A stretch of DNA of 64,000 nucleotides from Escherichia coli (GCF_024502345.1 NZ_JALDNN010000001.1); one strand, 5' to 3'. Shown: positions 39,294-48,571, counted from the first letter of the stretch. The notes: generated by a model from the sequence alone, not told the origin. Numbers and translations are program-made.

Positions 39294-40982
39294 ATGAGTG
39301 GTGAAAAAAAGGCGAAAGGCTGGCGGTTCTATGGTCTTGTAGGTTTTGGCGCAATAGCACTGCTTTCCGCTGGCGTCTGGGCGTTGCAATATGCTGGCAG
39401 TGGGCCAGAAAAAACGTTGTCGCCGCTGGTGGTGCACAACAATCTGCAAATCGATCTCAATGAGCCGGACCTCTTTCTCGACAGCGACTCTCTGAGCCAG
39501 CTTCCCAAAGATCTCCTCACCATTCCGTTTCTCCACGATGTTCTGAGCGAAGATTTCGTTTTCTATTATCAGAATCATGTCGATCGTCTGGGCATTGAAG
39601 GCAGCATTCGTCGCATTGTCTATGAACACGATCTCACGCTGAAAGATAAGCTCTTTTCGTCACTCTTAGATCAGCCCGCGCAGGCGGCGCTATGGCACGA
39701 TAAACAAGGCCATCTTTCACACTACATGGTGCTGATCCAGCGCAGTGGTTTAAGCAAACTGCTGGAGCCATTGTTGTTTGCCGCTACCAGCGACAGCCAG
39801 TTAAGCAAAACGGAAATCAGTAGCATCAAGATAAATAGTGAAACTATTCCTGTTTATCAGTTGCGCTATAACGGCAATAACGCCCTGATGTTCGCGACAT
39901 ATCAGGACAAGATGCTGGTGTTTTCCAGCACGGACATGCTATTTAAAGATGACCAGCAGGATACCGAAGCCACGGCGATCGCAAGTGATTTGTTGAGCGG
40001 CAAAAAACGCTGGCAAGCCAGCTTTGGCCTGGAAGCGCGTGCTGCCGAAAAAACGCCAGTACGCCTGCGCATCGTGGCCAGCGCCAGGTTGCTGGGTTTT
40101 GGCTACCAGCGGTTAATGCCTTCTTTTGCTGGCGTACGCTTCGAAATGGGTAACGACGGCTGGCACAGTTTTGTGGCGTTAAATGATGAATCCGCCAGCG
40201 TAGATGCCAGTTTCGATTTTACGCCGGTCTGGAACAGTATGCCTGCCGGGGCCAGCTTCTGTGTGGCGGTGCCGTATTCACACGGTATTGCCGAAGAGAT
40301 GCTTTCGCACATCAGCCAGGAAAACGACAAGTTGAATGGGGCGTTGGACGGTGCCGCGGGGCTGTGCTGGTATGAAGACTCAAAATTGCAAACCCCGCTG
40401 TTTGTCGGTCAGTTTGATGGCACTGCCGAACAGGCGCAATTGCCAGGGAAACTGTTTACGCAAAATATTGGTGCGCACGAAAGCAAAGCGCCAGAAGGTG
40501 TTTTGCCGGTAAGCCAGACTCAGCAGGGCGAAGCGCAAATCTGGCGTCGCGAAGTGAGTTCCCGATACGGTCAGTATCCGAAAGCGCAGGCGGCGCAACC
40601 CGATCAATTAATGTCGGATTATTTTTTCCGCGTGTCGCTGGCGATGCAAAACAAAACGCTGCTTTTCTCCCTCGATGACACGCTGGTTAATAACGCCCTG
40701 CAAACACTGAATAAAACCCGCCCGGCAATGGTGGATGTAATACCCACTGATGGCATCGTTCCGCTCTATATCAATCCACAAGGCGTGGCGAAACTGCTGC
40801 GTAACGAAACGTTGACCAGTCTGCCGAAGAATCTCGAACCGGTTTTTTATAACGCCGCACAAACTTTATTAATGCCGAAGCTGGACGCTTTATCTCAACA
40901 ACCGCGTTATGTCATGAAGCTGGCCCAGATGGAACCCGGTGCCGCCTGGCAGTGGCTACCCATAACCTGGCAGCCGCTATGA
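39294..40982 (+). CDS. yfaA: YfaA, DUF2138-like envelope protein with N-terminal membrane anchor (562 aa); first gene of the yfaATSQP operon
   Basis: ATG 39294 with AAGGA upstream; N-terminal hydrophobic segment [23 protein letters not shown]; stop overlaps the yfaT start (ATGA). Confidence 0.85.
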
Positions 40983-41602
40983 GGCACTGGCTGCTGGCGC
41001 TGATTTGCTGGCTGTGTTGTGTTGTTGCCCATAGCGAAATGCTGAATGTCGAACAATCCGGGCTGTTTCGCGCCTGGTTTGTACGCATTGCACAAGAACA
41101 GCTCCGCCAGGGGCCAAGTCCACGTTGGTATCAGCAGGATTGTGCGGGCCTGGTGCGATTTGCGGCGAACGAGACGCTGAAAGTTCACGACAGTAAATGG
41201 CTAAAAAGTAACGGTTTATCTAGCCAGTATTTGCCGCCAGAGATGACGCTAACACCTGAACAGCGTCAACTGGCGCAAAACTGGAATCAGGGGAACGGGA
41301 AAACCGGCCCCTACGTGACCGCGATTAATTTGATTCAGTACAACAGCCAGTTTATTGGCCAGGACATAAACCAGGCGCTGCCTGGCGATATGATTTTTTT
41401 CGATCAGGGCGATGCCCAGCACTTAATGGTCTGGATGGGGCGTTACGTCATCTACCACACCGGAAGCGCCACGAAAACTGACAACGGAATGCGCGCAGTC
41501 AGTCTGCAACAACTTATGACATGGAAGGACACCCGATGGATACCCAACGATTCCAATCCCAATTTCATTGGCATTTATCGTTTAAATTTTCTGGCGCGAT
41601 AG
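40979..41602 (+). CDS. yfaT: YfaT, DUF1175-like secreted protein (207 aa)
   Basis: Start [20 protein letters not shown] (signal peptide); coupled to yfaA and overlapping the yfaS 5' end. Confidence 0.85.
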
Positions 41603-47790: not shown

Positions 47791-47794
47791 TGCT

Positions 47795-48571
47795 ATGCGA
47801 AAGATTTTTCTTCCGTTGTTACTGGTGGCGCTTTCGCCTGTCGCTCACAGTGAAGGTGTGCAGGAAGTCGAGATTGACGCACCGCTCTCAGGCTGGCATC
47901 CGGCAGAGGGCGAAGATGCCAGTTTTTCACAATCGATCAATTACCCGGCGTCGTCCGTCAATATGGCAGATGATCAAAATATCTCAGCGCAGATCCACGG
48001 CAAAATAAAGAATTATGCTGCGGCGGGTAAAGTTCAGCAGGGCCGGCTGGTGGTCAACGGTGCCAGTATGCCGCAGAGAATTGAATCCGATGGTTCATTT
48101 GCACGCCCTTATATTTTCACTGAAGGCAGCAACAGCGTGCAGGTCATCAGCCCAGATGGGCAAAGCCGACAAAAAATGCAGTTTTACTCAACGCTGGGCG
48201 CTGGAGTGATTCGCGCACGTTTACGGCTGGTTCTCTCGTGGGATACGGACAATACCGACCTCGATCTTCACGTTGTCACGCCCGATGGCGAACACGCCTG
48301 GTACGGTAACACCGTGCTGAAAAACAGTGGTGCACTGGATATGGATGTCACGACGGGGTATGGACCCGAGATTTTCGCCATGCCAGCGCCAGTTCACGGG
48401 CGCTATCAGGTGTATATCAACTACTACGGCGGGCGCAGCGAAACGGAATTAACCACCGCCCAACTGACGCTGATCACCGATGAAGGATCGGTCAATGAGA
48501 AACAGGAAACATTTATTGTACCGATGCGTAATGCTGGCGAGCTGACGCTGGTGAAAAGTTTTGACTGGTGA
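47795..48571 (+). CDS. yfaP: YfaP, DUF2135-like secreted protein (258 aa)
   Basis: ATG 47795, 4 nt after the yfaQ stop; signal peptide MRKIFLPLLLVALSPVAHSEG. Confidence 0.85.
   Translation: MRKIFLPLLLVALSPVAHSEGVQEVEIDAPLSGWHPAEGEDASFSQSINYPASSVNMADDQNISAQIHGKIKNYAAAGKVQQGRLVVNGASMPQRIESDGSFARPYIFTEGSNSVQVISPDGQSRQKMQFYSTLGAGVIRARLRLVLSWDTDNTDLDLHVVTPDGEHAWYGNTVLKNSGALDMDVTTGYGPEIFAMPAPVHGRYQVYINYYGGRSETELTTAQLTLITDEGSVNEKQETFIVPMRNAGELTLVKSFDW

Follow-up and report, generated by a model that had tools for sequence, protein, structure and literature searches.

The closest described relative of the system considered here is the Mag complex of Pseudomonas aeruginosa (MagABCDEF, PA4492-PA4487), which is built around MagD, a type II bacterial alpha-2-macroglobulin (A2M). 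MagD is periplasmic, is held and stabilised at the inner membrane by MagB, binds MagA, MagB and MagF 1:1 and undergoes an in vivo cut from 165 to ~100 kDa that requires its partners to be present (PMC3735191, PMC5764988). Deletion of magE strongly lowers MagD and seems to block its processing (PMC3735191, PMC5764988), and deletion of magC is without pronounced effect on the MagD forms according to the text around Fig. 6 of PMC5764988; the role of this NlpC/P60-like protein in MagD processing is unclear from that paper when the Fig. 6 legend is set against the text. The MagD bait, ANRSERG, was mapped experimentally, and MagD traps TEV protease non-covalently once the bait has been cleaved (PMC5764988). 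The protein is reported to be cysteine-free. In 2025, a CRISPR interference (CRISPRi) study found that the mag operon shields P. aeruginosa from VgrG3 and Tae1, two peptidoglycan (PG)-targeting type VI secretion system (T6SS) effectors (PMC12663445). Here, we analysed a 64,000-nucleotide stretch of the Escherichia coli chromosome (NZ_JALDNN010000001.1, assembly GCF_024502345.1; hereafter the window, meaning the whole stretch), which carries the five genes yfaA-yfaT-yfaS-yfaQ-yfaP at 39294-48571. We regard this locus, with near certainty, as the Mag complex's orthologue in E. coli, a type II bacterial A2M in the five-gene form magBCDEF.

The assignment rests on protein identities and on a common gene order. 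YfaA is 46% identical to MagB, YfaT 75% to MagC, YfaS 54% to MagD (over ~1500 residues), YfaQ 53% to MagE and YfaP 52% to MagF, all over nearly the full length. Full-length relatives of YfaS number in the hundreds at ~55% identity in Pseudomonas, Serratia and Yersinia, and a P. aeruginosa-type contig, on which gatCAB and mreB flank the locus, encodes in succession DUF2135, DUF2138, DUF1175 ('MagC' in Pfam), A2M, DUF2300 plus SpoIID and DUF2135 proteins, that is, magABCDEF. The original prediction, made from the sequence alone, presented the locus as a poorly characterised system, a view that has to be given up: the system is already described in the literature as a type II bacterial A2M (PMC3735191, PMC5764988) and is not new. 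It also held that the accessory proteins, of DUF2138, DUF1175, DUF2300 and DUF2135 type, have no demonstrated function. Pfam finds all four types, and functions have been described for the Pseudomonas orthologues (anchoring by MagB, binding by MagA and MagF, PG binding by MagC); the statement still stands for the E. coli genes, on which nothing was found in the literature searched. The genes are as follows.

yfaA, 39294-40982, + strand: 562 aa, MagB orthologue, N-terminal membrane helix and DUF2138 periplasmic part
yfaT, 40979-41602, + strand: 207 aa, MagC orthologue, NlpC/P60-like, triad Cys55-His148-His160
yfaS, 41536-46140, + strand: 1534 aa, MagD orthologue, thioester-less A2M
yfaQ, 46141-47790, + strand: 549 aa, GTG start, MagE orthologue, three predicted domains
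yfaP, 47795-48571, + strand: 258 aa, MagF orthologue and MagA paralogue, signal peptide and C-terminal DUF2135/YfaP_C

All five open reading frames (ORFs) are open and full length, and the tight coupling that had been noted from the sequence is exact at every junction: yfaA and yfaT share an ATGA overlap, yfaT and yfaS overlap by 67 nt (as in the Serratia orthologue), yfaS and yfaQ are separated by 0 nt (TAA then GTG) and yfaQ and yfaP by 4 nt. Promoter-like and terminator-like sites inside the operon do not exceed chance. Each product had been thought to carry a signal peptide or a membrane anchor, and our calls, based on hydrophobicity and AXA-type cleavage-site patterns only, agree: all five are predicted to be exported or membrane-anchored, YfaA by a helix and the four others by cleavable-type signal peptides (a slash marking the predicted site, AHS/E in YfaT, ANA/D in YfaS, TLA/E in YfaQ and AHS/E in YfaP). 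None of the five proteins matches a PADLOC protein model at E<=0.01, and we therefore do not class it with the known phage-defence systems; NCBIfam is uninformative for the operon proteins beyond PRK11410 for YfaA.

The gene set is conserved as a unit. Scanning one genome per species gave 371 relatives, and we searched the best 80 loci by tblastn with all the Mag and Yfa proteins; gene order is kept in 80 of the 80 wherever sequence is available. The original prediction named two outcomes that would refute it, a 1534-aa ORF unlike A2M and a gene set that does not stay together across genomes, and neither was observed. Sixty loci, from Pseudomonas, read A-B-C-D-E-F. Thirteen read B-C-D-E-F, among them all the complete loci of Escherichia, Superficieibacter, Serratia, Edaphovirga and Citrobacter youngae; the Pseudomonas loci counted in this group begin inside magB, and magA is not assessable there. 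The remaining seven hold fewer genes, six being cut by the end of the locus and the seventh, in P. cichorii (L069, downstream of 14251), having magA-E without magF. Two metagenomic contigs with YfaQ homologues at 30-33% identity extend the pattern: one has a complete DUF2138-MagC-A2M-DUF2300-YfaP_C set and the other, which is short, keeps what fits. No DUF2135 gene lies upstream of yfaA, where gyrA and a terminator-like hairpin are found, and magA is likewise absent from all enterobacterial loci and from the distant locus L088. MagA being a paralogue of MagF (41% identity), we treat its absence as a lineage variant and not as a reason to exclude these loci from the type II A2Ms.

YfaS had been described as an A2M-family protein of 1534 aa without a CxEQ thioester motif, and both parts of this description hold. 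Pfam recognises MG2, A2M_BRD, A2M and bMG10 domains, and there is no C.EQ in the 1534 residues, the only cysteines being C25 (in the signal peptide) and C1189. The main features of the protein are listed here.

YfaS MG2, residues 344-440, 42565-42855, + strand: Pfam 4.6e-19; PDB searches link the region to YfhM, complement C5 and CD109 as well
YfaS A2M_BRD (bait-region domain), residues 661-806, 43516-43953, + strand: Pfam 3.7e-17
YfaS bait segment, residues 841-870, 44056-44145, + strand: NRSER at 852-856 equals that of the MagD bait ANRSERG (847-853)
YfaS A2M domain, residues 871-953, 44146-44394, + strand: Pfam 6e-12
Former thioester site G1069-V-I-N1072, 44740-44751, + strand: aligns to C1187-L-E-Q of YfhM, in a degenerate domain resembling the thioester domain (TED)
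YfaS C-terminal bMG10, residues ~1409-1517, 45760-46086, + strand: Pfam 1.1e-4

A single-sequence search of the PDB with YfaS returned only weak matches to complement C5 and CD109 and missed YfhM, the thioester-containing A2M of E. coli. A family profile built from 15 orthologues detects YfhM in three segments (E=3e-12 against YfhM structures) and gives weak TED matches to TEP1 and to a YfhM fragment. Around the former thioester, the profile reads 'PYGGVvNTAS' (residues 1066-1075) against 'PYGCLEQTAS' in YfhM (domain E=2.8e-8). Since CLEQ of YfhM is thus aligned to GVIN, the thioester has gone by substitution, within a TED that is degenerate yet still recognisable. The separation from the yfhM-pbpC pair that had been proposed is borne out: YfhM is encoded at another locus and carries CLEQ at residue 1187.

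The start of yfaS deserves a comment. ATG 41536 is preceded at 6 nt by a GGAAGGA ribosome-binding site, and residues 1-38 (nt 41536-41649) form a signal peptide ending in ANA/DD that aligns with the signal peptides of the orthologues. NCBI PGAP/RefSeq places the start at GTG 41626 (1504 aa), which is without a ribosome-binding site and cuts the signal peptide off. ATG 41536 fits better as the start, so that the dominant database form of YfaS (40,950 sequences) is probably shortened N-terminally by annotation. Within the signal peptide, the sequence IAAC25 (residues 22-25, 41599-41610) resembles a lipobox; its cysteine is not conserved in the orthologues.

The bait ranks with the best conserved stretches of YfaS, a feature that we did not find in the literature searched. 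Over residues 841-870, column identity among the 15 orthologues is 78%, against a protein mean of 62%; N852, R853, S854, R856 and E862-E867 do not vary at all, and from E. coli to Pseudomonas the stretch NRSER...ERPRREE stays essentially unchanged. TNRSERR of YfaS (851-857) corresponds to the mapped bait of MagD (ANRSERG, 847-853). Baits aimed at many foreign proteases are typically variable. That this one is conserved and rich in Arg suggests a specific cleavage, possibly by an endogenous enzyme.

Three of the partners can be dealt with briefly. YfaA has a single N-terminal membrane helix (residues 12-34, 39327-39395), which is also helical in an AlphaFold2 (AF2) model, and matches Pfam DUF2138 at 7e-287. 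YfaT matches DUF1175 (1e-57), NlpC/P60 weakly (1.5e-3) and the crystal structure of MagC (PDB 7BK8, E=2e-103). No protein of the operon is better conserved (69% column identity), and C55, H148 and H160 of YfaT are invariant (>=97%) in 78 orthologues; YfaT keeps an invariant Cys-His-His triad, which we did not find described in the literature searched, and its fold and triad place it among the NlpC/P60-like proteins. A passage of PMC10318531 cites the DUF1175/MagC family as NlpC/P60-like, inactive yet PG-binding. YfaP, finally, matches DUF2135 (5.6e-17) and is 52% identical to MagF and 40% to MagA. Its orthologues share an invariant D/H/E cluster (D150, D157, H159, D164, H167, D182, D184 and E192; 48242-48370) that looks like a candidate metal-binding site. 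Sequence searches for solved homologues of YfaA, YfaQ and YfaP found none.

YfaQ is the operon's least understood member. Its family is small (290 representatives among 1.84 billion), and we aligned 57 members at 27-48% identity; the AF2 model obtained from this alignment has a pLDDT of 93.1 and a pTM of 0.87. After a predicted signal peptide (residues 1-19; all family members have signal-peptide-like N-termini), three domains are proposed.

YfaQ serine beta-lactamase/penicillin-binding protein (PBP)-like domain, residues ~22-255, 46204-46905, + strand: invariant S60-x-x-K63, S108-C109 and K195-T196
YfaQ SpoIID-like domain, core residues 312-446, 47074-47478, + strand: Y326, R329, R333 and E334 invariant
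YfaQ C-terminal domain, residues 447-549, 47479-47787, + strand: H520-E-x-x-H524 (nt 47698-47712), C452 and C488 invariant, E536 and E540 near-invariant

The invariant positions of the 57-member alignment fall in all three parts: S60, K63, C92, S108, C109, K195, T196, G211 and G214; Y326, R329, V330, R333, E334, D369, Q374 and R375; and C452, C488, H520, E521 and H524. Six cysteines are invariant or nearly so, and four conserved ones lie in the N-terminal domain (C82, C92, C93 and C109). The two wall-related assignments are well supported as predicted folds. The beta-lactamase/PBP fold is found by two methods, with the SxxK, S and KT motifs at the helix and strand positions that such a fold would have; the glycine of the PBP KTG motif is F, W or Y in the YfaQ family, and this aromatic residue may block a PBP-type active site. 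For the second domain, Pfam SpoIID matches at 1.4e-5 and E334 aligns with the catalytic Glu of SpoIID.

The C-terminal domain lies beyond the end of the SpoIID alignment. Its elements, a helix, three strands, the HExxH helix and a Glu-bearing helix, come in an order that fits a zincin fold in the AF2 model, and HExxH is invariant in the 57 diverse members and present in 78 of 79 orthologues, the remaining one being gapped there. The best PDB profile match is the minigluzincin MJ1213, through 'laHEylHL', at a non-significant E=0.87; two of seven members give weak matches to PHROG 'metallo-protease' (E=0.06-0.09), and NCBIfam returns nothing for this domain. Position 530 (nt 47728-47730), ten residues from the first His of HExxH, a metzincin-like spacing, is His in 72 of the 79 orthologues and Tyr in Escherichia, Superficieibacter and Citrobacter youngae; H530 is a possible third zinc ligand, uncertain since E. 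coli has Tyr. We thus put forward the metallopeptidase assignment as a hypothesis at the level of the motif, in which residues 447-549 would be a candidate minimal zincin domain. The predicted reading of YfaQ/MagE as an exported protein with PBP-like, SpoIID-like and HExxH domains was not found in the literature searched: the two Mag papers contain no mention of HExxH, zinc, metallo, SpoIID or DUF2300 (PMC3735191, PMC5764988), and DUF2300 appeared in a single, unrelated paper. The conserved signal peptides, the conserved cysteines and the two cell-wall-type folds argue for action in the periplasm.

Pfam also places DUF2300 twice on YfaQ as full-length matches, at residues 84-205 (46390-46755, E=3e-42) and 412-532 (47374-47736, E=1e-45). 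A true internal repeat was considered and rejected: the two segments have no pairwise similarity (the score equals the shuffle mean) and lie in different predicted domains, one PBP-like and the other spanning the end of the SpoIID-like domain and HExxH. The Pfam model itself may be composite.

How intact is the operon in E. coli as a species? Nearly every complete E. coli genome (5425 of 5426) has a match to the region 39000-48900, 5177 of them (95%) over >=80% of its length, the closest being E. coli strain C 236-04A. All five genes have dN/dS values of 0.02-0.13 against E. whittamii, E. albertii and Superficieibacter, and the operon is under purifying selection. Lesions exist nonetheless. 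Codon 1368 of yfaS is TGG in the window and TGA in the K-12-type genome, and truncated YfaS forms of 959-1379 aa are many in E. coli, O157:H7 included, the full-length form being the common one (a cluster of 40,950 member sequences). In NZ_CP109924, the nearest genome record, with a single further mismatch over 9.9 kb, yfaA is annotated as frameshifted, AAA at 39813-39816 being AA there; this 1-bp deletion in an A-run could mean that the strains differ or that the homopolymer was misread in the sequencing of that record. In E. albertii NBRC 107761 (L008 5750-7444), yfaA has an in-frame stop and no ORF of >=80% of full length. Given this stop and the absence of magF from P. cichorii, single accessory genes are occasionally lost.

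The immediate surroundings of the operon in the window are the following.

gyrA, 36518-39145, + strand: upstream neighbour of the yfa operon
Terminator-like hairpin, 39165-39182, + strand: after gyrA, dividing it from the yfa operon
rcsC, from 48846: downstream neighbour of yfaP

In the interval 48572-48845, rcsC directly follows yfaP, and atoSCDAEB, which lies between them in K-12-type genomes, is absent; the same ato-less junction is found in 1536 of the 5426 complete E. coli genomes, O157:H7 included. Elsewhere the module has other neighbours: a phage-type integrase and fimbrial genes in Serratia sp. D1N4 (L005 1-5000), and in Superficieibacter (L009) it is not beside gyrA. The varied neighbourhoods and the 54-75% identity between the E. 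coli and Pseudomonas proteins are compatible with lateral movement of the module.

We consider that the best account of the operon is the published Mag model transferred to E. coli, with a probability of roughly 0.6: a tethered, non-covalent cage that would be linked to the wall via YfaT and probably YfaQ. All five products would be exported. YfaA (MagB), with one N-terminal helix in the inner membrane, would hold and stabilise YfaS (MagD) on the periplasmic face, and YfaP (MagF) would be an accessory subunit bound to YfaS. YfaT (MagC) would contact PG and so, we infer, would YfaQ (MagE). Cleavage of the YfaS bait (residues ~841-870) would switch its conformation and cage the incoming enzyme sterically; because CLEQ of the thioester is replaced by GVIN, YfaS would form no covalent bond with it. 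The role of such a machine would be to protect the cell wall and the periplasm from imported proteases and PG-degrading T6SS effectors. Gene structure, domain content, thioester loss, orthology, synteny and purifying selection are established here; the Pseudomonas work contributes anchoring at the membrane, the 1:1 complexes, trapping without a covalent bond, binding to PG and protection from T6SS, and E. coli would be expected to behave in the same way.

Several observations weigh against this account. Trapping by MagD was seen only with an engineered TEV site and was incomplete (PMC5764988). MagE was found in the cytoplasmic fraction of P. aeruginosa 'despite possessing the signal peptide' (PMC3735191, PMC5764988), in conflict with the export predicted here. 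It is not evident how caging by an A2M would disarm VgrG3 or another effector of the lysozyme-like kind. On the E. coli side, magA is lacking, our search for promoters turned up no sigma-70-like site in the 148 nt between gyrA and yfaA, and no studies of the E. coli yfa genes were found in the open-access literature searched. Because yfaS is a pseudogene in K-12-type strains and truncated variants are many, the system is also dispensable in the laboratory.

Other explanations have to be weighed against the transferred Mag model, and one of them would extend it. YfaQ might be a sensor-protease whose PBP/BlaR1-sensor-like and SpoIID-like domains read the state of PG or bind beta-lactam-like ligands and whose HExxH domain cleaves the bait of YfaS/MagD. 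The cut would yield the 165 to 100 kDa processing seen in Pseudomonas, and activation would come from a dedicated partner and not from an enemy protease. The confident AF2 model (pLDDT 93), the beta-lactamase/PBP fold found by two methods with its invariant SxxK, S and KT motifs, the SpoIID-like fold with its catalytic Glu conserved, an HExxH that is invariant down to 27% identity, the signal-peptide-like N-termini of all members together with six (near-)invariant cysteines and a bait that is conserved and not hypervariable all speak for this idea. However, the zincin assignment stands on a motif and on non-significant matches (E=0.87 in the PDB, E=0.06-0.09 in PHROG, nothing in NCBIfam), F, W or Y stands in for the KTG glycine and may block the PBP-type site, and the candidate third ligand H530 is Tyr in Escherichia. 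Moreover, MagE was cytoplasmic in fractionation and formed no stable complex with MagD (PMC3735191, PMC5764988), and MagB is also needed for MagD cleavage (PMC5764988). We hold this extension to be tentative and, on balance, rather doubtful; that YfaQ/MagE is a soluble periplasmic counterpart of the BlaR1-type sensor-proteases, sensing PG damage, free stem peptides or beta-lactam-like molecules, strikes us as unlikely.

The conserved bait bears in the opposite direction on the classical view, raised as a possibility in the original prediction and reportedly that of the 2004 proposal on bacterial A2Ms, in which YfaS would be a broad trap for host proteases entering a damaged periplasm, and hence a colonisation or virulence factor, the other four proteins acting as chaperones or anchors. 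YfaS has the complete A2M domain set, and the MagD bait is cut by trypsin, chymotrypsin and papain while neutrophil elastase changes the shape of MagD (PMC3735191, PMC5764988). Yet a bait at 78% identity against a mean of 62%, with NRSER...ERPRREE invariant from E. coli to Pseudomonas, is not what such a trap would call for; YfaS has no thioester, two accessory proteins keep conserved catalytic-type residues of PG enzymes beyond the needs of an anchor, the operon is often found in pseudomonads of soil and plants, and the only clean phenotype so far concerns bacterial PG-targeting effectors (PMC12663445). We do not expect this view to prevail. The same catalytic-type residues might instead point to a housekeeping PG-remodelling machine with YfaT and YfaQ as working enzymes and the macroglobulin as a restraining scaffold or regulator: the Cys-His-His triad is conserved in YfaT, the most conserved protein of the operon, SxxK and the SpoIID Glu are conserved in YfaQ, and the type I A2M offers an analogy, its partner being the synthase PbpC. 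This appears improbable, since DUF1175/MagC is cited as inactive but PG-binding in the passage of PMC10318531 mentioned above, Pseudomonas operon mutants and E. coli pseudogene carriers grow normally, and the mag operon is regulated with T6SS and biofilm genes and not with growth (PMC12663445, PMC5764988). Finally, the nonsense codon of yfaS in K-12-type strains, the truncated YfaS of 959-1379 aa in E. coli including O157:H7, the yfaA frameshift of NZ_CP109924 and the yfaA stop of E. albertii NBRC 107761 could be taken as signs of a decaying remnant, conserved by descent and no longer functional in E. coli. With five intact genes in the window, dN/dS values of 0.02-0.13 against three related species, a full-length YfaS cluster of 40,950 sequences and the locus in 95% of complete genomes, we regard decay as very improbable indeed.

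The yfa system is thus near-universal in E. coli and under purifying selection, yet its E. coli genes are apparently unstudied, partly because of the K-12 nonsense mutation in yfaS. A strain like the present one, in which none of the five genes is disrupted, is the right background for experiments. The architecture of YfaQ, the conserved bait and the YfaT triad make the activation of a thioester-less macroglobulin directly testable: which enzyme cleaves MagD, why its partners are needed and how effectors are neutralised. If YfaQ turned out to be a sensor-protease, type II A2Ms would be armed by a partner from their own operon and not by the attacking enzyme.

Comparison with known systems helps to place each component. 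The type I A2Ms (YfhM/ECAM with PbpC in E. coli, SaA2M in Salmonella) share a superfamily with YfaS, since a profile picks up MG2, the bait-region domain and the TED segment, and both types are periplasmic and associated with the inner membrane. The similarity between YfaS and YfhM is nevertheless very low: YfhM has a CLEQ thioester (residue 1187) and an N-terminal lipobox, MLALAGC, and is paired with pbpC alone at a separate locus, whereas YfaS has GVIN, a cleavable signal peptide and no adjacent pbpC, so that none of the type I hallmarks (CxEQ, lipobox, pbpC adjacency) is present apart from the non-conserved, lipobox-like IAAC25. Eukaryotic A2M and complement proteins, especially the thioester-less C5, have an MG-domain architecture in common with YfaS, C5 and CD109 being its best single-sequence PDB matches; C5 works without a thioester after specific proteolytic activation. 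Type II A2Ms differ in being bacterial, periplasmic, monomeric and tethered to the membrane via a partner, and identity to the eukaryotic proteins is very low.

YfaQ resembles two further groups in part. Only ~135 of its residues, roughly half a SpoIID domain, align with the SpoIID/LytB lytic transglycosylases, it scores 17 bits against NCBIfam SpoIID_LytB (cut-off 83), and the 'GHGxGMSQ' region conserved at the C-terminus of SpoIID is not evident. BlaR1/MecR1 combine a class D-like sensor with an M56 gluzincin; YfaQ is predicted to be soluble and exported, without membrane helices after its signal peptide, its domains come in the reverse order (sensor first, HExxH last) with a SpoIID-like domain between them, an aromatic residue takes the place of the KTG glycine, and no homology to M56 was detected at the sequence level. 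The likeness to BlaR1/MecR1 would be an analogy of architecture and not membership.

It is with the Mag complex that the correspondence is closest, and the differences are those of lineage and context. E. coli and four other enterobacterial genera are without magA, the yfaT/yfaS overlap is 67 nt against 4 nt in Pseudomonas, YfaQ has Tyr530 where most of the family has His, the operon lies between gyrA and rcsC in E. coli and between roxSR and gatCAB in Pseudomonas, and the Pseudomonas operon is under Gac/Rsm regulation. The yfa operon has the A2M domains, no CxEQ, a signal peptide without a conserved lipobox Cys and the order DUF2138-DUF1175-A2M-DUF2300-DUF2135 of the type II A2Ms; its genes are one-to-one orthologues of their mag counterparts, in the same order and of the same Pfam families, and both systems have no thioester, share the bait core NRSER, provide YfaS/MagD with a signal peptide and confine the membrane helix to YfaA/MagB.

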